A stretch of DNA of 64,000 bases, taken from Escherichia coli. GTDB lineage: Bacteria; Pseudomonadota; Gammaproteobacteria; Enterobacterales; Enterobacteriaceae. The notes under the pieces were generated by a model, which was not told the origin of the DNA, searched no databases, and saw nothing but the letters and a program-made list of their open reading frames with translations. A program made the translations under genes and the position numbers. Location: assembly GCF_003790525.1 (NCBI RefSeq), contig NZ_CP033635.1. One strand, 5' to 3'. Position 1 is the stretch's first letter; each line of letters starts with the position of its first letter. Below are positions 1 through 43,998 of the stretch, in pieces.

Positions 1-814
1 CTGAGAAAGCGCCATGCGTAAATTTGCCTGTCTCGTAATCAAACTGTCCATGTAGCCAGGCGCAGGGATAGGTATTCAGATAGCGCTCATGTTCGCGCGC
101 CATTCCCTGGGGGCAGCAGAGGAGAATGTATTCACCATCAAGGGCGAAAAGATCAGGACATTCCCACATGTATCCTGCGTTATCAATTTCATTCAGACCA
201 TTACCAGCAATTTCTCCATGAAAAGACCAGGTATAGAGATCGACAGAGGAATACAGCAGCACTTTCCCCCGTTTCTCTTTATCTTGCGCGCCAAGCACCA
301 TGTACCATCGGCTGTTGTGCTTCCAGACTTTTGGATCACGAACATGTCCGGTGTAACCATCAGGTAACGGTATGACAGGGCCTAATTTATCAAACCCGCC
401 CTGGTTATTTTCGGTGGCCAGACATTGCCATGCCGTTCTGCTGCCATCATCAAACTTAACATTACCGGTATAGCAAAGTGTGAGAACGCCCTGATTATTA
501 ACCGCGCTTCCTGAGTAACAACCATTACGGTCATACTCTTTATCGGGCATTAGCGCTAATGGTTCATGCTGCCAGTGCAATAAATCCGTCGAACTCCAGT
601 GCCCCCAACATTTGTACTTATGATTACAATCCAATGGATTCCACTGATAAAACAGATGATAGCGGCCTCCTGACCAGCAAAAGCCATTTGGATCGTTCAT
701 TAGTCCGGTGACGGGAGCGAGATGCCAACAAGGATAGTGGGCATCTGCCTGTGCTTTGGACTGACCTTTCATCACTGCCTGTAAAATCGCGGGCATTTGT
801 GAAGGCATCGACAT
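1..814 (-). CDS. scrB: sucrose-6-phosphate hydrolase (GH32 invertase); N-terminal part only, gene runs off the window start
   Basis: Minus-strand frame open from 814 down to position 1; translation begins MSMPSQMPAILQAVMKGQSKAQADAHYPCWH; ATG overlaps the scrA stop (TAATG). Absent from the ORF track because no stop lies in the window. Confidence 0.75.
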   Translation of the reverse strand, partial: MSMPSQMPAILQAVMKGQSKAQADAHYPCWHLAPVTGLMNDPNGFCWSGGRYHLFYQWNPLDCNHKYKCWGHWSSTDLLHWQHEPLALMPDKEYDRNGCYSGSAVNNQGVLTLCYTGNVKFDDGSRTAWQCLATENNQGGFDKLGPVIPLPDGYTGHVRDPKVWKHNSRWYMVLGAQDKEKRGKVLLYSSVDLYTWSFHGEIAGNGLNEIDNAGYMWECPDLFALDGEYILLCCPQGMAREHERYLNTYPCAWLHGQFDYETGKFTHGAFS

Positions 815-2184
815 TACTCCTCGTCTGTTTTGTATTTGAGCAATAAAGAGAGACTAAAAGCGACAGCGAAAGCAATCACCATTCCAATAATATAATTAAC
901 CAACGATGTTGGCTGAACGATTGCCATGCCGGGTATTGCGGTCAGACCAACGGCAGTCATATAAACGTGAACAGAGACAACCCAGGCACCGCCGGCAGCG
1001 CCACCAATTAAGGCCGCAATAAAAGGTTTAACAAAACGAAGGTTGATACCAAAAATAGCGGCTTCAGTAATCCCTAACATTGCGGAAAAAGCCGAGGGTA
1101 GGGTGATTGCTTTAATTTTTGTATCTTTGGTTTTAAACCATACCGCCAGACATGCACCGCCTTGCGCAACGTTTGCCATTGCCCAAATAGGCAGCAGGAA
1201 ATTAACACCGATTGCAGGGTTACCTAAAAGTCCTGCTTCAATTGCGTGGAAGCTATGATGAATACCCGTAATAACAATCGCTGAATATAGCCCGCCGAAT
1301 AACAACCCCGCTAACCAGCCAGCGTGTGCAATCAGCGTGCTGAGAACGAAAGAGATACCATCACCTAACGCTCGCCCTGCCGGACCAATAATTAAAAGAG
1401 CGATAAAGCCAGAAATGACGACAGTCAGAAATGGCGTCAGAATGAGATCCAGAGCATCAGGGATAAACCTGCGTAACTGTTTTTCCACTATGCTCATAAA
1501 CCATACTGCCAGAAGCACGGGGAAAACCGTTCCCTGATAGCCAATCATGGCGATTTCAAAACCGAAGAAGTTCATTGTCTGAAATCCCGCAGCAACGCCC
1601 CAGGCATTTGTGAGTGCCGGGTGAGTCAGAATCCCTCCTAATGTCGCGCCAAGATAAGGATTTCCACCAAATTCACGAGCAGCAGTAAAGCCAATCAGGA
1701 TGGGGAGAATAATAAATGCGGCTGAACTGCACATATCCAGCAGGATATAAATCGCATTATCGGCATTCACCCAGCCATATGTTTTCACCATTCCCAGAAG
1801 CCCCATTAATAAACCAGAAGCAACAATGGCAGGAATGATGGGGACAAAAATATTAGAAAGCAGCCGTGCTATTCGCTGAAAAGGATTGAGTTTTTGAGCG
1901 GCGAGTCGAGCGGTATCTGCTTTACTGGATTCGCTAATACCCGCAACCTGAATAAAGGCAGCATAGACTTTATTAACCACGCCGGTGCCAAAGATGATCT
2001 GCATTTGCCCTGAATTACGAAAACAACCTTTCACTCCATCAATCTGGCCAATGGCATGTTGATCGGCAAGTGTGTCGTCAACCAGTACCAGCCGTAGGCG
2101 AGTGGCGCAATGTGCTGCACTGGCGATGTTCTCCTTACCACCTAATAAAGGAAGCAACGATTGGGCGATTTTATCGAAATCCAT
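814..2184 (-). CDS. scrA: PTS sucrose-specific EIIBC component
   Basis: 456 aa ORF; N-terminal EIIB-like motif (MDFDKIAQSLLPLLGGKENI...CATRLR) followed by a polytopic membrane domain. Confidence 0.85.
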   Translation of the reverse strand: MDFDKIAQSLLPLLGGKENIASAAHCATRLRLVLVDDTLADQHAIGQIDGVKGCFRNSGQMQIIFGTGVVNKVYAAFIQVAGISESSKADTARLAAQKLNPFQRIARLLSNIFVPIIPAIVASGLLMGLLGMVKTYGWVNADNAIYILLDMCSSAAFIILPILIGFTAAREFGGNPYLGATLGGILTHPALTNAWGVAAGFQTMNFFGFEIAMIGYQGTVFPVLLAVWFMSIVEKQLRRFIPDALDLILTPFLTVVISGFIALLIIGPAGRALGDGISFVLSTLIAHAGWLAGLLFGGLYSAIVITGIHHSFHAIEAGLLGNPAIGVNFLLPIWAMANVAQGGACLAVWFKTKDTKIKAITLPSAFSAMLGITEAAIFGINLRFVKPFIAALIGGAAGGAWVVSVHVYMTAVGLTAIPGMAIVQPTSLVNYIIGMVIAFAVAFSLSLLLKYKTDEE

Positions 2185-2244
2185 ATAACCCTCTAATTCA
2201 TTGTTATTTCAGTAAAAGCCTCACATTCGTGAGGCTGTCTGGTA

Positions 2245-3786
<1,542 letters not shown>

Positions 3787-3806
3787 TTATAAAAATTGCT
3801 AAAATG

Positions 3807-3820
3807 CTAAACCGGTTTAG
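3807..3820. promoter_or_regulatory. perfect 14-bp palindrome CTAAACCGGTTTAG, candidate ScrR (LacI-family) operator upstream of scrY
   Basis: Perfect inverted repeat read directly from the sequence in the scrK-scrY intergenic region. Confidence 0.5.
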
Positions 3821-3865
3821 GTGTTGATAATAAAGCTGACTTTTTAGCCAGAGCAATTATTTTCG

Positions 3866-3879
3866 CTAAACCGATTTAG
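3866..3879. promoter_or_regulatory. second operator-like near-palindrome CTAAACCGATTTAG
   Basis: One-mismatch copy of the 3807-3820 palindrome, 59 bp away in the same intergenic region. Confidence 0.45.
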
Positions 3880-3929
3880 TAAATGTGACAGGCACGACAA
3901 ATCGGGTTACAGATACAACAGCAGGATCA

Positions 3930-4850
3930 CTATTGTGAAGGGAGATCGTGTTGTCGGGGTAAGGCGGTTATCGCGCCTTTAGCCGTGGTCGCCAGAGCAC
4001 CACAAATCTGAGCTTGTGCAATGATTCGTTCAAGCTGTCTGGTATTTGTTGGTATTCCAGAATCAGCCAGACCTGCAAGTAATCCAGCGACAAAAGCATC
4101 TCCTGCCCCGGTCGTATCGACGACAGAAACAGGTTTGGCGGGATAGTGGATAAACTGCCCCTGAAAATACACAAGTACGCCATTTTTTCCTTGTGTAATA
4201 AGCAATAAAGTCAACGAATAACGTTGTACTAATGAATATGCGCCTTGCTGAACCTGGCTTTCGCCACTGATGAATAGCAACTCTTCTTCGGACAATTTAG
4301 CGATATTCGCCAGCGAAAGTGCGCGATCAAGGTATTTCCTTAATAGCGCTTCACTCTGCCAGAGATCGCTGCGGATATTGGGATCAAAACTGATGTTTCC
4401 GCCAGCCTGACGTATTTTCTCCATAGCCAGAAATGCGGTACTTCGGGAAGGTTCTGCACTGAGCGCAATGGAACAAAGATGGAGCCATTCACCCGGCCCA
4501 AATGCAGGAAGGTCACCAGGTTGTAAAAAAAGATCGGCACTTGGGCGTACCATAAAGGTAAAGTTTCTTTCTCCTTGCTCATCAAGTCCTACAGCCACAA
4601 TTGAGGTGCGTTGTTGAGGATCAAGAGACATATAATGTGTATCAACATTTTCTGTACTCAGTGTCTGATACATAAAGCGACCGAAAGGATCATCGCCAAC
4701 TTTGCCAATAAAGGCACTTTTCCCCCCCAGCCTTGCGATACCGACTGCAACATTAGCAGGCGCCCCGCCAGGACACTGTAGTAGTCTCCCCTGGCTTTCG
4801 GGTAATAAATCAACAACCGCATCACCGAGTACCCATACTCTTGCGCTCAT
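3930..4850 (-). CDS. scrK: fructokinase (PfkB/ribokinase family)
   Basis: 306 aa ORF with N-terminal GDAVVD and C-terminal DTTGAGDAF motifs. Confidence 0.85.
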   Translation of the reverse strand: MSARVWVLGDAVVDLLPESQGRLLQCPGGAPANVAVGIARLGGKSAFIGKVGDDPFGRFMYQTLSTENVDTHYMSLDPQQRTSIVAVGLDEQGERNFTFMVRPSADLFLQPGDLPAFGPGEWLHLCSIALSAEPSRSTAFLAMEKIRQAGGNISFDPNIRSDLWQSEALLRKYLDRALSLANIAKLSEEELLFISGESQVQQGAYSLVQRYSLTLLLITQGKNGVLVYFQGQFIHYPAKPVSVVDTTGAGDAFVAGLLAGLADSGIPTNTRQLERIIAQAQICGALATTAKGAITALPRQHDLPSQ

Positions 4851-5014: not shown

Positions 5015-6493
5015 TTACGCATTCGACCAGCTCTGGATCGAATCTTCATTCCCCAGCTCACCATGCATCACTTCATACGATTTTTTCAGGATCACATCAG
5101 TGTGCTTGGTTAGGTCTTTGAAAATGCCTTTATTCATCGCGTCGTAGCGTTTGGCGTTGCTCTCAACAGGCATAAAGATATCTTTCACGCGAACCATTTT
5201 GTCGACAGCCGTTGCGTAATCCGGGTATAGCCCCAGACCTGCCGCCGTATTGATCGCAGCCCCCAGACTTGCACAACCATTAATGGCGTTTCGGCGTGCC
5301 GGAAGGTTGAACACGTCGGCAAAAATCTGCATAAACAGATCGCTGTTCGAACCGCCGCCAGTAATGATCACATGCTTTGCAAAGTGATTCATTTCATTAC
5401 ACATATTGTCGTAATTGTTCTTCAGCGTCAGCGCCACGCTTTCCAGTATCGAACGATATATCCATGCGTAATCCATGCTGGAATCAAAGCCGATCATAAT
5501 CCCGCGTTTGTATGGTTCCCACGGATTGGTCAGCCAGTCCAGCACCGTCATCAGACCATTACAGCCAGGCGGCACACAAGACGCTTTTTTGTTGAGCAAA
5601 TCTTCCGGTGAAAGATCCTGTGCTTTGGCATCCTGAATTAACGACTCGCCTAGCATGTCGCGTAGCCAGCTCACCGTCCACATGCCTTTGCGAATACCGT
5701 AACCTTCATACAGCAAGGTTTGCGGAATAGAAGACATAATCGGCCAGTACGCTACCGGATCTTTCGGCAGTGCTTTGCCGTTCATCATCAACGCGATGTA
5801 AGTGCCAAGAGAAATTACCGCCGTTTCATCATCCAGTAACCCTGCTCCCAGTGCTTCTACCGGTTTATCACTGGTGGTACAAACAACGGGCAGTCCAACC
5901 GGGAAATGTGTCGCCAGCGCGGCTTGTGGTGTGATATGCCCAAGAACAGTGCCCGGCATTTGCACATCAAAAAGCATCTGTCGGGGAATATTAAACTTCT
6001 CCATTACCGCGGTATCTTCGCTCCATGCCCAGGTCTTATAATCCACCGGCCACTGACCAAAATAGTTGGCGATATTGTCTTTAAACTCGCCGGTTAAACG
6101 GTGTGTCAGATAACCTGAAAAAGAGGTGACATATGCCACATCAGGATTGGTGTGCTCGTAGGGACGTGTAACGCGTGCATCCTGCCAGCTAATCAACGGC
6201 GCAGCTGGCGTGCCATCGGCTTTCAATAACGCACGGCAGCAACGGATGGATCCCAGACCAATACCGACAATATCTTCTTTATTTCCGGCAAACTGACTCA
6301 TCAAATCGTGACCGGCAAAACATAATGATGCCCATAAATCGTCGTCAGGATGTTCTGCGGTATCGGCATCTGGCGTGTGCATCGGCTGCAATAAGCCTTT
6401 GCCTTCGCAAACCACATTACCTTCCAGATCATACATCACCACTTTTGTGCTCTGACTTCCGCCATCAATCCCTATGATGTATTTTTTCGACAT
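5015..6493 (-). CDS. ygcE: FGGY-family sugar (pentulose/hexulose) kinase
   Basis: 492 aa ORF, N-terminal IGIDGGSQSTK actin-fold kinase motif. Confidence 0.85.
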   Translation of the reverse strand: MSKKYIIGIDGGSQSTKVVMYDLEGNVVCEGKGLLQPMHTPDADTAEHPDDDLWASLCFAGHDLMSQFAGNKEDIVGIGLGSIRCCRALLKADGTPAAPLISWQDARVTRPYEHTNPDVAYVTSFSGYLTHRLTGEFKDNIANYFGQWPVDYKTWAWSEDTAVMEKFNIPRQMLFDVQMPGTVLGHITPQAALATHFPVGLPVVCTTSDKPVEALGAGLLDDETAVISLGTYIALMMNGKALPKDPVAYWPIMSSIPQTLLYEGYGIRKGMWTVSWLRDMLGESLIQDAKAQDLSPEDLLNKKASCVPPGCNGLMTVLDWLTNPWEPYKRGIMIGFDSSMDYAWIYRSILESVALTLKNNYDNMCNEMNHFAKHVIITGGGSNSDLFMQIFADVFNLPARRNAINGCASLGAAINTAAGLGLYPDYATAVDKMVRVKDIFMPVESNAKRYDAMNKGIFKDLTKHTDVILKKSYEVMHGELGNEDSIQSWSNA

Positions 6494-6519: not shown

Positions 6520-7797
6520 TTACTTGCTGCTAGCCATAGCAGGGGCGCTATCAGCAGTACGAATTTTTTGGAACAGCAAAAAGGTAAAGATGATCACCAT
6601 GGCAAGCGCCGCCATGCCCATTAGCCACATGTTGCGGTAGGCTTCTGCAGCGGGCAGGGTGTCTTGCCAGTGGCCGATAATCGGGTAAACGAAGACATCC
6701 GGCAGGAATCCAATCACCGAACAAATACCTACCGTGGTGCCCATAATGTAAGACGGTGTTCTCGCTTCGCCGGGGCAGGCCCAGTACAGTCCACGTGAGG
6801 CGTAGCAGGTGAATCCCAGTAGTAAAATCAGGCCAATCCCCATAGCGACCGATTGCGGGTTAGAGTTGGTAACAAGCAGGGCAGTCAGTGCCAGCAGGCC
6901 GATGATGGAAAGGATTTGAATTACGCGGGTAGGGGATTTCACTTTACTGTAGGTGGTGATAATGCCGCCAAGTGGACCACACAGCGCGCGGAAGATTTTG
7001 TTGATCACAATCCCCATGTAGCTCGCCGCCACCAGCGACATGCCGTACATTTCGGTGAGATAGTTGGTGGAGTAACTCAGAATGGCGTAGATGGTGAAGA
7101 CGCCAAAAATCACCATGCTGCAATACCAGGTGGTGCTGATGCGCAAAACAGCCAGGATGTCGCTAAGCTGGAATGATTGTTTTTCTTCGTTATTGGCACT
7201 GCGCAGGTTGTTGTTATCGCTAACAAAAAACCAGCACAGAATCCCCAACAAGATGTAAACCACACTATAGATGATAATGACCGTTTTCAGGCTGGCGCTG
7301 TCATCCGGTGCAAAGCGAGAAAAGACCCACATGGTAAACACCGCCAGCGACATTACACCGACGCCGCGCAGCCCTTCCATCCAGCCCATAATTTTCCCTT
7401 GCTCGCTATGATCGCCCAGCAACGATGCGGCTTTAATCGACACCGACCACAGCATTAAAATCGTCGTTATCGCAAAGGCAACCTGAATACAGAGCATTAC
7501 CCACAGCGGTGGATAAGTTGCCATTAACAGACCCAGTAATCCGGTAATGATCATCGCGGAAGTAATCATTTTGCGATGTGAGAATTTATCGGCAATAACG
7601 CCACTGGGCGCATAAAGAATAATAGCTGCAATACCAAAGGTACTCATTATTAAACCTATCTCGGTATTGCTGAATCCCATAAATTTCGCCATGGGAATTT
7701 GATAAATATAACGTAAATAAGCCAGGTCGAAACTAACGCCGCCGCTAAAACTAATTATCGCGAGGGTTATCCAACGGCGATATGAGTTGTGTTGCAT
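6520..7797 (-). CDS. yqcE: MFS transporter
   Basis: 425 aa ORF, 12-TM-like hydrophobic profile; 27 bp upstream of ygcE on the same strand. Confidence 0.8.
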   Translation of the reverse strand: MQHNSYRRWITLAIISFSGGVSFDLAYLRYIYQIPMAKFMGFSNTEIGLIMSTFGIAAIILYAPSGVIADKFSHRKMITSAMIITGLLGLLMATYPPLWVMLCIQVAFAITTILMLWSVSIKAASLLGDHSEQGKIMGWMEGLRGVGVMSLAVFTMWVFSRFAPDDSASLKTVIIIYSVVYILLGILCWFFVSDNNNLRSANNEEKQSFQLSDILAVLRISTTWYCSMVIFGVFTIYAILSYSTNYLTEMYGMSLVAASYMGIVINKIFRALCGPLGGIITTYSKVKSPTRVIQILSIIGLLALTALLVTNSNPQSVAMGIGLILLLGFTCYASRGLYWACPGEARTPSYIMGTTVGICSVIGFLPDVFVYPIIGHWQDTLPAAEAYRNMWLMGMAALAMVIIFTFLLFQKIRTADSAPAMASSK

Positions 7798-7821
7798 ATC
7801 GTATTCCCATTTGTAATAGAC

Positions 7822-7869
7822 AAAAAAAAGAGAAAAGTAAGCCGCCCTTTCAGGTGGATTACTTTTCTC
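7822..7869 (-). terminator. leader hairpin plus U8 tract 24 nt upstream of the yqcE start (candidate attenuator/terminator)
   Basis: 11-bp stem GAGAAAAGTAA / TTACTTTTCTC (7830-7840 / 7859-7869) followed on the minus strand by eight U (7822-7829). Confidence 0.5.
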
Positions 7870-7972
7870 AGGTCTCTAGTAATTGCAATAAGAAATAACA
7901 TGGAAAGCAGTGGTGTTGTGTGAGAGTAGTCACGCTTCTGCTTTTTAAAATTATTTGACAATACGAATATCA

Positions 7973-7994
7973 CACTGTGATTACGATCACATTA
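7973..7994. promoter_or_regulatory. CRP-type binding site (TGTGA-N6-TCACA) in the divergent yqcE/ygcW control region
   Basis: TGTGA at 7976-7980, 6-bp spacer, TCACA at 7987-7991: a perfect CRP core consensus. Confidence 0.55.
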
Positions 7995-8043
7995 GCGCTT
8001 ATGCCCTTATGCTAAAAATTATCTCCAGTTACCAGAGATAATG

Positions 8044-8090
8044 AGAAAGGTAACTTCCCTCTCGCGGGGGAAGTTACCTTTCTTTTTTTT
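8044..8090 (+). terminator. leader hairpin plus T8 tract 24 nt upstream of the ygcW start (candidate attenuator/terminator)
   Basis: 15-16 bp stem GAGAAAGGTAACTTCCC / GGGAAGTTACCTTTC (8043-8059 / 8068-8082), 8-nt loop, then TTTTTTTT (8083-8090). Confidence 0.55.
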
Positions 8091-8114
8091 GCTTTACGGA
8101 AATTGGAGTTAACT

Positions 8115-8900
8115 ATGTCAATCGAATCTCTCAATGCGTTCTCAATGGATTTTTTCTCCCTGAAAGGTAAAACAGCAATTGTTACCGGCGGGAATAGCGG
8201 TTTAGGCCAGGCATTTGCCATGGCGTTGGCCAAAGCTGGCGCAAATGTCTTTATCCCTAGCTTCGTCAAAGATAACGGCGAAACAAAGGAAATGATTGAA
8301 AAACAGGGTGTCGAAGTTGATTTTATGCAGGTGGATATCACCGCAGAAGGCGCGCCGCAGAAGATTATCGCTGCCTGCTGTGAGCGCTTCGGTACCGTAG
8401 ATATTCTGGTTAACAATGCCGGTATTTGTAAGCTGAATAAGGTGCTGGACTTTGGTCGTGCCGACTGGGACCCGATGATTGACGTGAACCTGACCGCCGC
8501 ATTCGAGTTAAGCTATGAAGCTGCAAAAATTATGATCCCGCAGAAAAGCGGTAAAATCATTAATATCTGTTCATTATTCTCTTACTTAGGTGGACAATGG
8601 TCACCTGCATATTCTGCCACTAAACATGCTCTTGCCGGATTCACCAAAGCTTATTGTGATGAACTAGGTCAATATAATATTCAGGTAAATGGTATTGCCC
8701 CTGGATATTACGCTACCGATATCACCCTGGCGACACGCAGTAATCCAGAAACCAATCAGCGCGTTCTTGATCATATTCCAGCAAACCGTTGGGGCGATAC
8801 TCAGGATTTAATGGGCACAGCCATATTTCTCGCAAGTCCGGCATCGAATTATGTCAACGGACATTTATTAGTGGTTGATGGCGGTTATTTAGTGCGCTAA
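8115..8900 (+). CDS. ygcW: short-chain dehydrogenase/reductase (KduD/gluconate 5-dehydrogenase-like)
   Basis: Start moved from the ORF-track TTG (8103) to ATG 8115 (MSIESLNAF..., GGAG Shine-Dalgarno at 8105-8108); TGGNSGLG Rossmann motif. Confidence 0.85.
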   Translation: MSIESLNAFSMDFFSLKGKTAIVTGGNSGLGQAFAMALAKAGANVFIPSFVKDNGETKEMIEKQGVEVDFMQVDITAEGAPQKIIAACCERFGTVDILVNNAGICKLNKVLDFGRADWDPMIDVNLTAAFELSYEAAKIMIPQKSGKIINICSLFSYLGGQWSPAYSATKHALAGFTKAYCDELGQYNIQVNGIAPGYYATDITLATRSNPETNQRVLDHIPANRWGDTQDLMGTAIFLASPASNYVNGHLLVVDGGYLVR

Positions 8901-8969
8901 TCCATAACGGTGGTTTCTGTTTTCTCTTATTAATGATTATTCCATTTTTATTATCAGGAAGGAATTACT

Positions 8970-10424
8970 ATGTCTTTATCTCGCGCAGCGATTGTCGACC
9001 AGCTAAAGGAAATTGTTGGTGCAGATCGCGTAATTACCGATGAAACAGTATTAAAGAAAAACAGTATTGACCGTTTTCGCAAATTTCCGGATATTCATGG
9101 CATTTATACTTTGCCTATTCCGGCAGCGGTCGTAAAACTCGGTTCCACAGAGCAAGTGTCCCGTGTGCTGAATTTTATGAATGCGCACAAAATTAACGGT
9201 GTGCCGCGTACCGGTGCTTCCGCCACTGAAGGCGGGCTGGAAACCGTTGTGGAAAACTCGGTGGTGCTCGACGGCTCTGCCATGAATCAAATCATTAATG
9301 TTGATATTGAGAATATGCAGGCCACGGCGCAATGTGGCGTTCCGCTGGAGGTGCTGGAAAACGCGTTGCGTGAAAAAGGTTACACCACGGGGCATTCACC
9401 GCAATCAAAACCGCTGGCGCAGATGGGCGGCCTGGTAGCAACCCGCAGTATCGGGCAGTTCTCCACACTCTACGGCGCAATCGAAGATATGGTCGTTGGT
9501 CTGGAAGCAGTATTGGCTGATGGCACCGTCACACGTATTAAAAACGTACCACGCCGCGCGGCAGGCCCGGACATTCGTCACATTATCATCGGCAACGAAG
9601 GTGCATTGTGCTATATCACTGAAGTAACAGTGAAAATCTTTAAGTTCACCCCGGAAAACAACCTCTTCTACGGCTATATCCTGGAAGACATGAAAACCGG
9701 CTTCAACATCCTGCGTGAAATCATGGTGGAAGGGTATCGTCCGTCGATCGCTCGTTTGTATGACGTTGAAGATGGCACCCAACACTTCACCCATTTTGCC
9801 GACGGTAAATGTGTGCTGATCTTTATGGCTGAAGGTAACCCTCGCATTGCGAAGGCGACGGGTGAAGGGATTGCTGAAATCGTGGCGCGCTACCCGCAGT
9901 GCCAGCGCGTGGACAGCAAGCTGATCGAAACCTGGTTTAACAACCTGAACTGGGGACCGGATAAAGTGGCTGCCGAACGTGTGCAGATCCTCAAAACCGG
10001 CAACATGGGCTTTACCACCGAAGTGTCCGGCTGCTGGAGCTGCATCCACGAAATCTACGAAAGCGTTATTAACCGTATTCGCACCGAGTTCCCGCACGCC
10101 GACGACATCACCATGCTGGGCGGTCACTCCTCTCATAGCTATCAGAACGGCACCAACATGTACTTCGTCTACGACTACAACGTCGTTGACTGTAAGCCGG
10201 AAGAGGAAATCGACAAGTACCACAATCCGCTCAACAAAATCATTTGCGAAGAAACCATTCGCCTCGGCGGTTCGATGGTGCACCACCACGGTATTGGTAA
10301 ACATCGCGTTCACTGGAGCAAACTGGAACACGGCAGCGCGTGGACGTTGCTGGAAGGGCTGAAAAAACAGTTCGATCCTAACGGCATTATGAATACGGGT
10401 ACTATCTATCCGATTGAAAAATAA
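8970..10424 (+). CDS. ygcU: FAD-linked oxidase (GlcD / alkyl-DHAP synthase-like)
   Basis: 484 aa ORF with FAD-binding PCMH-type domain signature. Confidence 0.85.
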   Translation: MSLSRAAIVDQLKEIVGADRVITDETVLKKNSIDRFRKFPDIHGIYTLPIPAAVVKLGSTEQVSRVLNFMNAHKINGVPRTGASATEGGLETVVENSVVLDGSAMNQIINVDIENMQATAQCGVPLEVLENALREKGYTTGHSPQSKPLAQMGGLVATRSIGQFSTLYGAIEDMVVGLEAVLADGTVTRIKNVPRRAAGPDIRHIIIGNEGALCYITEVTVKIFKFTPENNLFYGYILEDMKTGFNILREIMVEGYRPSIARLYDVEDGTQHFTHFADGKCVLIFMAEGNPRIAKATGEGIAEIVARYPQCQRVDSKLIETWFNNLNWGPDKVAAERVQILKTGNMGFTTEVSGCWSCIHEIYESVINRIRTEFPHADDITMLGGHSSHSYQNGTNMYFVYDYNVVDCKPEEEIDKYHNPLNKIICEETIRLGGSMVHHHGIGKHRVHWSKLEHGSAWTLLEGLKKQFDPNGIMNTGTIYPIEK

Positions 10425-10465
10425 TGTGTGAGGCAGCGTTCCGCGATGACGGGGCGTTGCCTTTT

Positions 10466-10496
10466 CGGCTTCTCAGGCGAGAAGCCGTTCTTATTA
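10466..10496 (+). terminator. intercistronic terminator-like hairpin between ygcU and ygcS
   Basis: 9-bp stem CGGCTTCTC / GAGAAGCCG with loop AGGC, followed by TTCTTATTA. Confidence 0.4.
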
Positions 10497-10517
10497 CCGG
10501 ACAATGAAGGGGTAAAG

Positions 10518-11855
10518 ATGAACACTTCACCGGTGCGAATGGATGATTTACCACTTAACCGTTTTCACTGCCGCATTGCTGCGCTCACTTTCGGTGCGCA
10601 CCTGACCGACGGTTATGTCCTCGGCGTCATTGGTTACGCCATTATTCAGCTTACGCCCGCCATGCAACTGACGCCGTTTATGGCGGGAATGATTGGCGGC
10701 TCAGCACTCCTTGGTTTGTTTCTTGGCAGCCTGGTTCTTGGATGGATCTCCGACCATATTGGTCGGCAAAAAATCTTCACCTTCAGCTTTTTGCTGATTA
10801 CGCTCGCTTCGTTCTTGCAATTTTTTGCCACCACGCCAGAGCATCTTATTGGGCTGCGCATTTTGATCGGCATTGGTCTGGGAGGCGATTACTCAGTCGG
10901 TCACACCTTGCTGGCTGAATTTTCCCCGCGCCGCCATCGCGGTATTTTACTGGGCGCATTCAGCGTGGTGTGGACCGTAGGCTATGTGTTGGCAAGTATT
11001 GCCGGACATCACTTTATTTCCGAAAACCCGGAGGCCTGGCGCTGGCTGCTGGCATCAGCGGCGTTACCAGCCTTGCTGATTACGCTGCTACGTTGGGGCA
11101 CGCCGGAATCGCCACGCTGGCTACTGCGCCAGGGACGTTTTGCTGAAGCTCACGCTATTGTGCATCGCTATTTGGGGCCACATGTTTTACTGGGCGATGA
11201 AGTGGCAGCGGCGACCCATAAACACATCAAAACCTTGTTTTCTTCGCGCTACTGGCGACGCACGGCGTTTAACAGCGTCTTCTTTGTCTGCCTCGTAATC
11301 CCATGGTTTGTGATTTATACCTGGCTGCCGACCATCGCCCAGACTATTGGTCTGGAGGATGCGCTGACCGCCAGCCTGATGCTTAATGCGTTGTTAATTG
11401 TGGGCGCGCTGCTGGGATTAGTTCTGACGCACCTGCTGGCACATCGCAAGTTTTTGCTGGGAAGTTTTTTGCTGCTGGCGGCAACGCTGGTAGTGATGGC
11501 CTGTTTGCCTTCCGGCAGTTCATTAACGCTGCTGCTTTTTGTTCTCTTCAGCACCACCATTTCGGCAGTCAGTAATCTGGTGGGCATTTTGCCTGCGGAA
11601 AGTTTTCCTACTGACATTCGCTCGCTGGGCGTCGGTTTTGCCACCGCCATGAGTCGGTTGGGGGCGGCGGTAAGTACTGGCCTGCTGCCGTGGGTGCTGG
11701 CGCAGTGGGGAATGCAAGCCACCTTATTGCTCCTGGCGGCAGTGTTGTTGGTTGGTTTTGTTGTGACCTGGCTATGGGCACCAGAAACCAAAGCACTCCC
11801 GCTGGTGGCGGCGGGAAATGTAGGAGGTGCGAATGAACATTCTGTTAGCGTTTAA
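10518..11855 (+). CDS. ygcS: MFS sugar/metabolite transporter
   Basis: Start taken at ATG 10518 (MNTSPVRMDD...), 445 aa; the ORF-track start at 10428 is an upstream in-frame extension. Confidence 0.8.
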   Translation: MNTSPVRMDDLPLNRFHCRIAALTFGAHLTDGYVLGVIGYAIIQLTPAMQLTPFMAGMIGGSALLGLFLGSLVLGWISDHIGRQKIFTFSFLLITLASFLQFFATTPEHLIGLRILIGIGLGGDYSVGHTLLAEFSPRRHRGILLGAFSVVWTVGYVLASIAGHHFISENPEAWRWLLASAALPALLITLLRWGTPESPRWLLRQGRFAEAHAIVHRYLGPHVLLGDEVAAATHKHIKTLFSSRYWRRTAFNSVFFVCLVIPWFVIYTWLPTIAQTIGLEDALTASLMLNALLIVGALLGLVLTHLLAHRKFLLGSFLLLAATLVVMACLPSGSSLTLLLFVLFSTTISAVSNLVGILPAESFPTDIRSLGVGFATAMSRLGAAVSTGLLPWVLAQWGMQATLLLLAAVLLVGFVVTWLWAPETKALPLVAAGNVGGANEHSVSV

Positions 11856-12612
11856 AGCCGAACCGGATGCCGGAATGCTGGCGGAAAAAGAGTGGCAGGC
11901 GGCGGCTCAGGGTAATATTGGACCAGATGTTTCGCTACTGCGAAGTTTACTCGGTGCTGATGAACAGGCTGCCGCCGCGCTGCTGTTGGCGCAGAGAAAA
12001 AATGGTACTCCGATGTCTTTAACCGCGTTGAGCATGGGGGATGAACGGGCGTTGCACTGGCTGCGCTATCTCATGGCTCTTGGGTTTGAGGAAGCTGTAT
12101 TGCTGGAGACGGCGGCAGATCTGCGCTTTGCGCCGGAATTTGTCGCTCGCCATATTGCCGAGTGGCAGCATCAGAATCCGCTGGATCTGATCATTACCGG
12201 CTGCCAAAGCAGCGAAGGACAGAATGGGCAAACGCCATTTTTGCTGGCGGAAATGCTGGGCTGGCCCTGTTTCACCCAGGTGGAGCGTTTCACACTCGAC
12301 GCGCCGTTTATCACCCTCGAACAGCGTACTGAAAATGGGGTGCGCTGTTGCCGGGTTCGCTTGCCTGCGGTGATTGCCGTGCGTCAGTGCGGTGAAGTGG
12401 CCTTGCCAGTACCGGGAATGCGCCAGCGAATGGCTGCGGGGAAAGCAGAAATTATCCGTAAAACTGTTGCTGTCGAATTGCCAGCGATGCAGTGTCTGCA
12501 ACTGGCAAGAGCAGAGCAACGACGCGGAGCGACGCTGATTGATGGGCAAACGGTAGCAGAAAAAGCGCAAAAGCTATGGCAGGACTATTTACGCCAAAGG
12601 ATGCAGCCATGA
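11833..12612 (+). CDS. ygcR: electron transfer flavoprotein beta-like subunit (FixA-like)
   Basis: ATG 11833 (MNILLAFK...) preceded by AGGAGG at 11822-11827. Confidence 0.8.
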   Translation: MNILLAFKAEPDAGMLAEKEWQAAAQGNIGPDVSLLRSLLGADEQAAAALLLAQRKNGTPMSLTALSMGDERALHWLRYLMALGFEEAVLLETAADLRFAPEFVARHIAEWQHQNPLDLIITGCQSSEGQNGQTPFLLAEMLGWPCFTQVERFTLDAPFITLEQRTENGVRCCRVRLPAVIAVRQCGEVALPVPGMRQRMAAGKAEIIRKTVAVELPAMQCLQLARAEQRRGATLIDGQTVAEKAQKLWQDYLRQRMQP

Positions 12613-13469
12613 ATATCGCCATTGTGACAATAAATCAGGAGAATGCCGCAATAGCGAGCTGGCTGGCAGAACAGGATTTCAGCGGTTGTACCCTGGCGCA
12701 CTGGCAGATTGAACCTCAGCCCGTAGTGGCGGAACAGGTGCTGGATGCGTTGGTGGAACAGTGGCAGCGAACGCCTGCGGACGTTGTTCTCTTTCCGCCG
12801 GGAACGTTTGGCGATGAACTGTCGACCCGGCTGGCCTGGCGTTTACATGGTGCAAGCATCTGCCAGGTGACTTCGTTAGATATTCCAACCGTAAGCGTGC
12901 GCAAATCCCACTGGGGAAATGCGTTGACGGCGACGCTGCAAACAGACAAACGCCCGCTATGCCTTTCGCTGGCACGTCAGGCGGGAGCAGATAAAAACGC
13001 CACGTTGTCCTCTGGGATGCAGCAACTGAACATTGTCCCCGGCGCGCTTCCCGACTGGCTGGTTAGCCTAGAAAACCTGAAAAATGTTACCCGCGACCCA
13101 TTAGCTGAAGCCAGACGGGTGCTGGTGGTGGGGCAGGGCGGAGAGGCAGATAACCAGGAAATCGCTATGCTGGCAGAAAAGCTGGGAGCCGAAGTGGGCT
13201 ACAGTCGGGCACGAGTGATGAACGGTGGCGTTGATGCCGAAAAAGTCATTGGTATTTCCGGACATCTGCTGGCACCTGAGGTGTGTATTGTTGTTGGTGC
13301 TTCCGGCGCAGCAGCGTTAATGGCGGGCGTACGCAATAGCAAGTTTGTGGTGGCGATTAATCATGACGCCAGCGCAGCGGTATTTTCACAGGCAGATGTT
13401 GGCGTGGTTGATGACTGGAAAGTGGTGCTGGAGGCACTGGTGACAAACATTCACGCAGATTGCCAATAA
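12609..13469 (+). CDS. ygcQ: electron transfer flavoprotein alpha-like subunit (FixB-like)
   Basis: ATG 12609 (MNIAIVT...) overlapping the ygcR stop (ATGA). Confidence 0.8.
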   Translation: MNIAIVTINQENAAIASWLAEQDFSGCTLAHWQIEPQPVVAEQVLDALVEQWQRTPADVVLFPPGTFGDELSTRLAWRLHGASICQVTSLDIPTVSVRKSHWGNALTATLQTDKRPLCLSLARQAGADKNATLSSGMQQLNIVPGALPDWLVSLENLKNVTRDPLAEARRVLVVGQGGEADNQEIAMLAEKLGAEVGYSRARVMNGGVDAEKVIGISGHLLAPEVCIVVGASGAAALMAGVRNSKFVVAINHDASAAVFSQADVGVVDDWKVVLEALVTNIHADCQ

Positions 13470-13615: not shown

Positions 13616-14191
13616 TTAAAGCAATTTTTTCGCCAACGTCCAGACCCCGGTATTCGTGGTGGAAAGCGCCACGACACCCGCGTTAATCGCATTACGCGCA
13701 TCTTCTTCATCGCACACCAGCCCGCCGGCAATCAGCGGTTGGCGGATTTTCTCCGTCACCCAGCCCAGCACTTTGGGCATACAGCCAGGCAGGATCTCAA
13801 TACAATCCGGATTCGATTGCGCAACTTGCTTATCAATGTTGTGAAACGAAATCGAATCAACAATAAACAGTCGATGAATACAGAAAAAACCTTCCGCTCT
13901 TGCTGCTTTCAGCATTGAGGCTTTGGTACTGATAATTCCGTCCGCCTCGGTCACCAGTTTCAAAAACTGAATCACCACTTCTTTATTTGACGCGCCTTCC
14001 AGCAAATCAACATGAATAAAAGCATATTTCCCGGCGTTCTTAATCTTTTTAACGATATTACTAATGGTGCAGATATTGCCGTACAACACGGAAATAAACT
14101 GGCATTCAGAGTCGATTGCCAGTTGCAGGCTGGCATTATCTTTAACGGCAGCAATCACCGGATTCTGGCGGAGCAGGTGTAAGAGGGGCAT
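13616..14191 (-). CDS. ygcP: GlpP-family (glycerol-3-phosphate-responsive type) transcription antiterminator
   Basis: 191 aa ORF; sequence and size match the GlpP/YgcP family. Confidence 0.8.
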   Translation of the reverse strand: MPLLHLLRQNPVIAAVKDNASLQLAIDSECQFISVLYGNICTISNIVKKIKNAGKYAFIHVDLLEGASNKEVVIQFLKLVTEADGIISTKASMLKAARAEGFFCIHRLFIVDSISFHNIDKQVAQSNPDCIEILPGCMPKVLGWVTEKIRQPLIAGGLVCDEEDARNAINAGVVALSTTNTGVWTLAKKLL

Positions 14192-42886: not shown

Positions 42887-43879
42887 ATGAGTCAGAATAC
42901 GCTGAAAGTTCATGATTTAAATGAAGATGCGGAATTTGATGAGAACGGAGTTGAGGTTTTTGACGAAAAGGCCTTAGTAGAAGAGGAACCCAGTGATAAC
43001 GATTTGGCCGAAGAGGAACTGTTATCGCAGGGAGCCACACAGCGTGTGCTGGACGCGACTCAGCTTTACCTTGGTGAGATTGGTTATTCACCACTGTTAA
43101 CGGCCGAAGAAGAAGTTTATTTTGCGCGTCGCGCACTGCGTGGAGATGTTGCCTCTCGCCGCCGGATGATCGAGAGTAACTTGCGTCTGGTGGTAAAAAT
43201 TGCCCGCCGTTATGGCAATCGTGGTCTGGCGTTGCTGGACCTGATCGAAGAGGGCAACCTGGGGCTGATCCGCGCGGTAGAGAAGTTTGACCCGGAACGT
43301 GGTTTCCGCTTCTCAACATACGCAACCTGGTGGATTCGCCAGACGATCGAACGGGCGATTATGAACCAAACCCGTACTATTCGTTTGCCGATTCACATCG
43401 TAAAGGAGCTGAACGTTTACCTGCGAACCGCACGCGAGTTGTCCCATAAACTGGACCATGAACCAAGTGCGGAAGAGATCGCAGAGCAACTGGATAAGCC
43501 AGTTGATGACGTCAGCCGTATGCTTCGTCTTAACGAGCGCATTACCTCGGTAGACACCCCGCTGGGTGGTGATTCCGAAAAAGCGTTGCTGGACATCCTG
43601 GCCGATGAAAAAGAGAACGGTCCGGAAGATACCACGCAAGATGACGATATGAAGCAGAGCATCGTCAAATGGCTGTTCGAGCTGAACGCCAAACAGCGTG
43701 AAGTGCTGGCACGTCGATTCGGTTTGCTGGGGTACGAAGCGGCAACACTGGAAGATGTAGGTCGTGAAATTGGCCTCACCCGTGAACGTGTTCGCCAGAT
43801 TCAGGTTGAAGGCCTGCGCCGTTTGCGCGAAATCCTGCAAACGCAGGGGCTGAATATCGAAGCGCTGTTCCGCGAATAA
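42887..43879 (+). CDS. rpoS: RNA polymerase sigma factor RpoS (sigma-38)
   Basis: Start taken at [21 protein letters not shown] (330 aa); sigma-70 family regions 2-4. Confidence 0.95.
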
Positions 43880-43894
43880 GTAAGCATCTGTCAG

Positions 43895-43931
43895 AAAGGC
43901 CAGTCTCAAGCGAGGCTGGCCTTTTTCTTTT
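43895..43931 (+). terminator. rho-independent terminator downstream of rpoS
   Basis: 13-bp stem AAAGGCCAGTCTC / GAGGCTGGCCTTT (one mismatch) with a 4-nt loop, followed by TTTCTTTTATTT. Confidence 0.6.
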
Positions 43932-43998
43932 ATTTGGGAGTCGGTGTGTTTTGTCGCCTGGATAAGACACGTCAGCGTCCCACCCGGCAATCAACATC

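Follow-up and report, generated by a model that had tools for sequence, protein, structure and literature searches.

Probable CRP-dependent, GlpP-type antitermination switches in the divergent ygcW and yqcE leaders of Escherichia coli

The genes ygcW and yqcE of Escherichia coli are divergently transcribed and head two operons of the ygc/yqc cluster, for which substrate, inducer and regulator were previously unassigned. What switches these operons on is the question raised by their shared intergenic region, at positions 7798-8114 of a 64-kb stretch of contig NZ_CP033635.1 (hereafter the window, to which coordinates refer). A preliminary description of this DNA had proposed a catabolite-controlled, antitermination-gated operon pair. 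This proposal was supported by sequence elements, comparative data, published RNAs and binding of CRP at one of the sites, and the ygcW and yqcE leaders are probably two divergent CRP-dependent terminator/antiterminator switches of the GlpP type. The window region was 100% identical to that of E. coli SMS-3-5, whose RefSeq annotation was used together with the list of open reading frames (ORFs) for gene assignment, and was found at at least 95% identity in 5066 of 5426 complete E. coli genomes (93%).

Leader terminators and the hairpins that overlap them

As previously described, both genes were preceded by a hairpin and a tract of eight T; the start of the ygcW hairpin, given before as 8044, was corrected to 8043. 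In E. coli K-12 the tract ahead of ygcW has nine T, not eight. The terminators listed below were identified by direct reading and a terminator scan, the yqcE P1 hairpin by leader parsing, pair counts, folding and a regular expression, and the ygcW P1 hairpin by folding and covariation.

7822-7869, minus strand: intrinsic terminator of the yqcE leader, hairpin 7869 to 7830 (GAGAAAAGTAATCCACCTGAAAGGGCGGCTTACTTTTCTC) followed by U8 at 7829 to 7822
7798-7821, minus strand: 24-nt yqcE spacer (7821 to 7798) with ribosome-binding site, from the T tract to the ATG at 7797
8043-8090, plus strand: intrinsic terminator of the ygcW leader, hairpin 8043-8082/84 (GAGAAAGGTAACTTCCCTCTCGCGGGGGAAGTTACCTTTCT) followed by U8 at 8083-8090
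8091-8114, plus strand: 24-nt ygcW spacer with a GGAG ribosome-binding site, from the T tract to the ATG at 8115
7858-7883, minus strand: yqcE P1 hairpin, AUUACU (7883 to 7878), loop AGAGACCUGAGAAA (7877 to 7864), AGUAAU (7863 to 7858)
8027-8055, plus strand: ygcW P1 hairpin, AGUUACC (8027-8033), loop AGAGAUAAUGAGAAA (8034-8048), GGUAACU (8049-8055)

The folding energy was -20.5 kcal/mol for the yqcE terminator (z = -5.0) and -30.6 kcal/mol for the ygcW terminator (z = -7.1), and none of 200 shuffled sequences was as stable in either case. The terminator scan gave 7 sites against 0.9 expected. The motif GAGAAA(A/G)GTAA was common to both 5' arms and preceded by AGAGA, as had been read before; AGAGA lay 3-4 nt upstream of each arm. 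With one mismatch allowed, this 11-mer was matched seven times in the 64 kb against 1.19 expected, and four of the seven matches, three exact and one with one mismatch, lay at the hairpins, being the two 5' arms and their echoes on the complementary strand. The spacing of 24 nt between T tract and ATG, emphasized in the preliminary description, held for both leaders of the window but not as a general rule, since it was 22-28 nt in the Escherichia/Citrobacter/Klebsiella/Enterobacter group (22-25 nt ahead of yqcE in close relatives) and 19-68 nt in more distant genera.

The earlier reading recognized the terminators but missed a small hairpin, here called P1, upstream of and overlapping each of them. 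P1 has 6-7 bp and a loop of 14-15 nt with the pattern AGAG(A/C)-N2-5-GAGAAA, that is, two GAG boxes. Six nucleotides of its 5' strand are complementary to the RGUAAY of the terminator 5' arm, with GUUACC/GGUAAC in the ygcW leader and AUUACU/AGUAAU in the yqcE leader. In the latter, the P1 3' strand and the GAGAAA box double as the terminator 5' arm, and P1 of the ygcW leader likewise overlaps that arm. Folded alone, the 5' part of the yqcE leader yielded the P1 helix at -2.6 kcal/mol, and ygcW P1 formed 7 bp with a 15-nt loop at -6.7 kcal/mol (z = -2.9). A weak P1 set against a strong terminator is the usual energy balance of a protein-stabilised antiterminator.

Two further features of the ygcW leader were recorded. 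A 24-codon ORF on the plus strand (8041-8112, MRKVTSLSRGKLPFFFLLYGNWS and a stop codon) crosses the terminator and ends 2 nt ahead of the ygcW ATG; it was rejected as a leader peptide because its ATG is not conserved, being absent in the yqcE leader and replaced by CTG or AAG in many orthologues. When the full leader was folded, UCUCCAG at its 5' end (8021-8027) paired with UUGGAGU of the ribosome-binding region (8103-8109). This is a hint that read-through transcripts have a further layer of control, at the level of translation; the pairing looked weakly conserved.

CRP sites, promoters and short RNAs

Between the two hairpins, the following elements of initiation were located:

7976-7991, no strand: CRP site 1, TGTGATTACGATCACA, perfect core, centred at 7983.5 (about -39.5 to -41.5 relative to the ygcW start)
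7919-7934, no strand: predicted CRP site 2, TGTGAGAGTAGTCACG, matching 9 of 10 core positions, centred at 7926.5 (about -42.5 relative to the yqcE start)
7884-7900, minus strand: yqcE promoter core, extended -10 TGtTATTTC (7900 to 7892), likely start near A7884
8010-8025, plus strand: ygcW promoter core, extended -10 TGcTAAAAA (8010-8018), likely start at 8023-8025

The perfect CRP core noted earlier at 7976-7991 was read directly from the sequence. CRP binds this site in vitro with a Kd of 1.7 nM (PMC12871828) and in vivo, as seen from a chromatin immunoprecipitation sequencing peak in enterotoxigenic E. coli (PMC4287617); this site had been predicted as early as 2007 (PMC1794230), and yqcE-ygcE has been listed as CRP-activated (PMC8085971). 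Site 1 had been regarded as a single shared site, and in this respect the earlier view was replaced by two sites, one per promoter, the second of them predicted. Two CRP-like sites were present in every complete divergent intergenic region of Enterobacterales. In all loci 58.5-60.5 nt separated the centre of site 1 from GAGAAA in the ygcW leader, and in all complete divergent loci 56.5-62.5 nt separated the centre of site 2 from the yqcE hairpin, whereas the distance from site 1 to site 2 ranged from 36 to 173 nt. Because the distance from site to leader is fixed and that between sites is variable, each CRP site would belong to its own promoter.

On the yqcE side, TGnTA was found at a fixed distance in relatives, and TGnTAAAAAT was conserved in relatives on the ygcW side. 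The CRP centres lay 39.5 and 42.5 nt from the 5' ends of published RNAs, which are boundaries of RNA-seq segments and not mapped primary ends, and both promoters appear to have class II geometry, with CRP near -41.5 replacing the -35 element and an extended -10. At 7969-7981 a second palindrome, ATCACACTGTGAT, extends into the left half of CRP site 1; its half-sites have the inverted order, and K-12 has this palindrome as well.

Two short RNAs have been published for the ygcW-yqcE intergenic region, both encoded on the same strand as the gene that follows them: ecr2774 (2898315-2898388, 73 nt) and ecr2775 (2898527-2898590, 63 nt) (Romero et al. 2014, PMC4681348, Table S5). They were filed as candidate small RNAs (sRNAs), 'simple stem-loop, perhaps REP-like' (REP, repetitive extragenic palindromic), and ecr2775 was northern-positive (PMC4681348). 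Both were mapped to K-12 and to the window through an inferred offset of +1978 between genome versions, on which their lengths and the gap of 138 nt between them do not depend. The 5' end of ecr2775 fell at about 7884, the A just before AUUACU, and its 3' end 1 nt past T8, while ecr2774 began at about 8023, 18-20 nt upstream of its hairpin, and ended about 5 nt past the T tract. The published 5' ends were therefore 15-20 nt upstream of the hairpins and the 3' ends at the T tracts, which indicates that transcription begins upstream of both hairpins and that short terminated transcripts exist. With this mapping, the RNAs span the region from promoter to T tract and the first nucleotide of P1 is at +2 to +5. 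The earlier claim that the terminators lie inside the 5' leaders was thus strengthened, as the starts mapped upstream and not downstream of the hairpins and RNAs of 63 and 73 nt had been published. We read ecr2774 and ecr2775 as the prematurely terminated products of two attenuators.

Related leaders, YgcP and GlpP targets

A scan with YgcP, using one genome per species, gave 64 loci from about 20 genera of Enterobacterales and from Listeria, Bacillus, Thalassobacillus, Lachnoclostridium and Faecalibacterium. The gene ygcP adjoined ygcW, ygcU, yqcE and ygcE in nearly all 64 loci, Firmicutes included, and linkage of a PF04309 gene to the cluster was seen in 60 or more of these loci, all fetched by ygcP itself. 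The same element was found within 125 nt upstream of ygcW and yqcE in every Enterobacterales locus having the intergenic region, and every complete divergent ygcW/yqcE locus (about 50 in number) had P1 and terminator in each of its two leaders. A regular expression for the whole design had 110 hits in the 1.37 Mb of fetched loci and none in shuffled sequence. R1, a covariance model of the leader element trained solely on ygc-type leaders, detected exactly two strong copies per complete divergent locus, one per leader, with scores of 57-85 bits. Over the 64-kb window R1 found no further strong copy, and the next hit, at 24 bits, was an ordinary terminator at 43866-43935.

The covariation check suggested in the preliminary description supported the pairing of both P1 and the terminator. 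In 90 distinct leaders, terminator pairs were 91.6% paired against 54-65% in slid controls, and pair 33-69 was AU in 66 leaders and GC in 23. The upper stems were wholly different between leaders and between genera, with pairing nonetheless kept. For P1, 90% of the cells were paired in the MAFFT alignment of 90 leaders (A1) against 17-60% in slid controls, and none of 500 shuffles reached the observed value; these pair counts are conservative because some 14 leaders, which have 4 additional nt after P1, are misplaced in A1. Since the alignment shifted some leaders, P1 was parsed directly in 102 of them. The types found were GUUACU/AGUAAC (35), AUUACU/AGUAAU (25), GUUACC/GGUGAC (15), GUUACC/GGUAAC (11) and GUUGCC/GGCGAC (1), and GUUGCU/AGCGAC occurred in Listeria and Bacillus. 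Compensatory changes, in which both sides were altered and pairing was kept, were found at three of the six positions.

Some leaders and intergenic regions departed from the common layout. In yqcE leaders of Serratia, Pantoea and Erwinia (L043 13346-13421, L050 13310-13384), a 4-nt insert (GAAW, GUCU or GACC) follows the P1 5' strand and precedes the first GAG box, giving 18-nt loops, so that spacing on this side of the loop is tolerant. An insertion of about 150 nt resembling the enterobacterial repetitive intergenic consensus (ERIC) type (…GAATCCCGATGAGCTTACTGTAGTAAGTGATTCGGGTGAG…) was found between the yqcE leader terminator and the start codon in Citrobacter youngae (L011 16320-16470) and Klebsiella spallanzanii (L012 12666-12816), with the leader intact. 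In Limnobaculum eriocheiris (L033 13855-13986), the ygcW-yqcE intergenic region has shrunk to 130 nt and holds one palindromic hairpin between A9 and T9, without P1, CRP sites or promoters, which looks like a rearrangement between two inverted leader hairpins. Serratia sp. DD3 (L041 17551-17623, minus strand) carries a complete leader element with no intact yqcE after it and ygcE about 750 nt further on, and this locus appears rearranged.

The same design was also found in the leaders of the syntenic operon of Listeria, where YgcW is 77% identical, Bacillus and Thalassobacillus. Five Listeria species had one element, behind a TTGACT-17-TATATA promoter and before the single operon ygcU-ygcP-yqcE-ygcW-ygcE; their leader reads GUUGCU AGAGAAUUGAGAUA AGCGAC and then the terminator. 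The GAG boxes were conserved in Listeria and Bacillus although they lie outside the terminator stem there (the Listeria box is GAGAUA), so their conservation is not due to terminator pairing; in Listeria it is most simply explained by protein contact.

The genes of the cluster in the window, assigned as described above, were as follows:

5015-6493, minus strand: ygcE, FGGY kinase, second gene of the yqcE-ygcE operon
6520-7797, minus strand: yqcE, major facilitator superfamily (MFS) transporter, first gene of the yqcE-ygcE operon
8115-8900, plus strand: ygcW, first gene of ygcW-ygcU-ygcS-ygcR-ygcQ
8115-13469, plus strand: ygcW-ygcU-ygcS-ygcR-ygcQ operon, encoding a short-chain dehydrogenase/reductase (SDR), FAD oxidase, MFS transporter and electron transfer flavoprotein (ETF) beta and alpha subunits
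13616-14191, minus strand: ygcP, PF04309 (GlpP family), proposed antiterminator, last gene of ygcN-ygcO-ygcP

The product of ygcP, previously named as a GlpP-family protein, matched PF04309 (G3P_antiterm) in Pfam over its full length (model positions 1-173 of 173, E = 1.6e-62), and its relatives in the PDB were 3kts and 1vkf. It aligned with the GlpP of a B. subtilis-group contig over the full length without gaps, at 28% identity (E = 2e-35). B. subtilis GlpP itself was not among the matches listed in the protein searches. The contig was reached with a primer sequence (PMC9604022) used as a DNA pattern in metagenomes, and was assigned to the B. subtilis group by the primer match and the gene order yhxA-glpP-glpF-glpK-glpD. 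Its glpD leader reads GGUC CUGAGACGAGGAGA GACC followed by a terminator of -41.4 kcal/mol, and its glpF leader UGUG AUGGAGAACUCGGAGAC CACA followed by a terminator; the motif is the same as that of the ygc leaders. The N-terminus of the GlpP encoded on the contig agrees with what we take to be that of B. subtilis GlpP, and the assignment does not depend on this agreement. At the glpF-glpK-glpP-glpD locus of Caldalkalibacillus, the glpF leader reads UUGGUC GGAGACAAGGAGAA GACCAA and the glpD leader GGUC AGAGAACUGGAGAA GACC, each followed by a terminator. Five further leaders beside PF04309 genes, from Oceanobacillus, Rossellomorea, Heyndrickxia and one metagenome contig, share the design and precede ABC transporter, MFS, hydrolase and glpA-like operons.

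On 94 kb of canonical GlpP loci, the three top hits of R1 were leaders previously picked by eye (L071, E = 2e-4; L070, E = 0.024; L068 glpF, E = 0.026), and canonical glp leaders were detected weakly and intermixed with generic terminators. In a family-wide alignment of P1 and loop (A3) the 3' strand was out of register, and A3 was not used for pair counts; 4-bp helices chosen by eye would make a family-wide count circular. Rfam 15 gave no hit near the gathering score in window 7000-9000 and no family match for the B. subtilis-group glpF and glpD leaders. In the accessible literature no explicit description of the GAG-box hairpin motif was found for B. subtilis. According to citing papers, conditional termination and GlpP binding have been shown experimentally for the B. 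subtilis glpD and glpF leaders, and the B. subtilis protein reportedly binds the RNA of the glpD leader (Glatz et al. 1998, cited in PMC9604022 and PMC7430163). We lean slightly towards the view that a hairpin at the RNA 5' end, with two GAG boxes in its loop and overlapping a terminator, is the general RNA target of PF04309 proteins in Firmicutes and Proteobacteria, YgcP being a diverged member whose ligand would have switched from glycerol-3-phosphate to the YgcE product.

Proposed switch and competing explanations

In the proposed switch, cAMP-CRP would drive initiation at both divergent promoters, each yielding a leader of 60-70 nt. In the off state, without inducer, a strong terminator (-20 to -30 kcal/mol, U8) would form and transcription would stop about 24 nt before the start codon, leaving the 63- and 73-nt RNAs. 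In the on state, YgcP loaded with a phosphorylated inducer, which is probably made by the YgcE kinase and need not be glycerol-3-phosphate, would bind the weak P1 at the RNA 5' end via the two GAG boxes in its loop. Closed P1 would lock up GAGAAA-RGUAAC, the 5' arm of the terminator, and polymerase would then read through into yqcE-ygcE and ygcW-ygcU-ygcS-ygcR-ygcQ. Since CRP would be required for initiation and YgcP with its inducer for elongation, expression would need two signals, as in an AND gate. The protein-bound hairpin at the 5' end might also stabilise the mRNA, as has been reported for GlpP and glpD mRNA (literature cited in PMC7430163 or PMC9604022). The cluster encodes the FGGY kinase YgcE, an SDR, an FAD oxidase with ETF and two MFS transporters in place of glpF, glpK and glpD, and for this reason the ligand is probably not glycerol-3-phosphate. 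The most economical guess for the inducer would be a phosphorylated polyol or sugar made by YgcE.

Several points weigh against this switch. P1 is weak by itself, and YgcP shares only 28% identity with GlpP. The transcription starts come from RNA-seq boundaries and the offset between genome versions, and the literature search turned up neither CRP-binding data for site 2 nor a functional study of ygcP. R1 scored the B. subtilis-group glpD leader at 16.5 bits (E = 0.4); P1 of canonical glp leaders has 4-6 bp, and a helix as short as 4 bp can be fitted by chance when the search interval is flexible. Finally, no GAG-box/terminator motif was found in the fetched flanks of the PF04309 loci of Serratia microhaemolytica (L046) and Alkalicoccus urumqiensis (L067), whose targets may lie elsewhere in the genome. 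The S. microhaemolytica locus is also without the rest of the ygc cluster.

Four other explanations were considered, which even jointly are unlikely, being disfavoured by the position and asymmetry of the element, by covariation and by the linkage to PF04309 genes. The one that survives best, though it is itself quite improbable, is that an RNA-binding factor other than YgcP, either a global regulator or another protein encoded in the cluster, reads the GAG-box hairpin. The distance of 5.5 kb to ygcP, which is in a separate operon, would fit such a factor; however, the motif tracks PF04309 genes across glpFK, glpD, ABC transporter, MFS operon and ygc contexts, and the reported binding of B. 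subtilis GlpP to glpD leader RNA (cited in PMC9604022 and PMC7430163) speaks for the PF04309 protein.

It is very unlikely that ecr2774 and ecr2775 are stand-alone trans-acting sRNAs with ordinary constitutive terminators, the downstream genes being served by other promoters. Both RNAs were listed as candidate sRNAs and one was northern-positive (Romero et al. 2014, PMC4681348), but they end 24 nt before co-oriented start codons, with no room for another promoter. Furthermore, the layout precedes orthologous operons in every genus, including single-operon Listeria, the glpD and glpF leaders are of the same design, and the activation of yqcE-ygcE by CRP fits a CRP promoter upstream of the leader.

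A protein-independent riboswitch or attenuator that senses a metabolite or translation directly is just as unlikely. Mutually exclusive hairpins in a 5' leader are its hallmark, and the 24-codon ORF of the ygcW leader (ATG at 8041 to TAA at 8110-8112) could be taken as a sign of translational sensing. However, the sole conserved unpaired element is the loop of 14-15 nt, which is below the size of known aptamers, no Rfam match beyond noise was obtained at E <= 10, and the ATG of the small ORF is missing from the yqcE leader and from many orthologues. A PF04309 gene also accompanied the element in almost all loci, though these had been retrieved through that gene.

Least probable of all is that the inverted repeats act as DNA, as repressor operators or as the REP-like repeats hinted at by Romero et al. 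(2014), because the upper stems differ between leaders and genera yet stay paired, the U tract is always on the sense strand alone, the element is asymmetric owing to the conserved P1 strand upstream, only two copies occur in the 64-kb window and in each related locus, both at leaders, and the RNAs end at T tracts. Membership of a dispersed family of REP sequences or bacterial interspersed mosaic elements (BIME) was rejected, there being two copies per locus with unrelated apical stems.

For the GlpP-type switch, the mechanism class is already known from B. subtilis, and what is new is the E. coli ygc cluster and its two mirror-image leaders. B. subtilis GlpP reportedly controls glpD, glpFK and glpTQ by antitermination, in work said to be that of Holmberg and Rutberg in 1991 and 1992 and of Glatz and co-workers in 1996 and 1998. 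Both systems have a PF04309 protein, an intrinsic terminator in the leader directly downstream of the promoter, a 5' hairpin with two GAG boxes in the loop whose 3' strand and second GAG box form the terminator base, and catabolite control on top, by CcpA in B. subtilis and CRP in E. coli. They differ in that the ygc host is Gram-negative and YgcP is 28% identical, in the targets, which are an SDR, an FAD oxidase with ETF, an FGGY kinase and two MFS transporters and not glp genes, in the length of P1 (6-7 bp in ygc, 4-5 bp in B. subtilis), and in the two mirror-image leaders within one intergenic region.

The bgl operon of E. coli, with BglG and a ribonucleic antiterminator (RAT)/terminator leader, likewise combines a CRP promoter with a protein-stabilised antiterminator hairpin overlapping the leader terminator, as is proposed for ygc. 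BglG, however, is a CAT-PRD protein controlled by phosphorylation through the phosphotransferase system (PTS) and reads a RAT stem with internal loops, whereas the ygc RNA is a simple hairpin with GAG boxes in the loop, and no CAT-PRD protein is annotated at the ygc locus in RefSeq. In the B. subtilis systems HutP/hut and TRAP/trp, as apparently in ygc, short repeated single-stranded GAG-like triplets by a terminator are recognised; HutP and TRAP form oligomeric rings, read 6-11 triplets over long stretches and have folds unrelated to PF04309, in contrast to the two boxes in one loop of ygc. The leader RNAs proposed here are the same as ecr2774 and ecr2775 by length and position, and differ in being read as terminated attenuator products instead of sRNAs.

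No published description of a GlpP-type mechanism for the E. coli ygc cluster was found. If the proposed switch is correct, ygc would be the first regulon of a Gram-negative model organism under GlpP-type antitermination, and the published 'sRNAs' ecr2774 and ecr2775 would be explained. If YgcP gates both operons, it would represent a second class of protein-mediated catabolic antitermination in E. coli besides BglG. Leader reporters would then allow the inducer, and through it the pathway substrate, to be screened for directly. The comparison also gives a compact definition, in sequence and structure, of the GlpP-family RNA target. Rfam has no family for this target, which could serve in the annotation of GlpP regulons across many genomes.

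Beyond the cluster, a sucrose-utilisation block was found 3' of ygcE at about 1-4850 of the window (L001 1-6151), comprising a LacI-family regulator, a sucrose-6-P hydrolase, a sucrose PTS IIBC component, a porin and a kinase.

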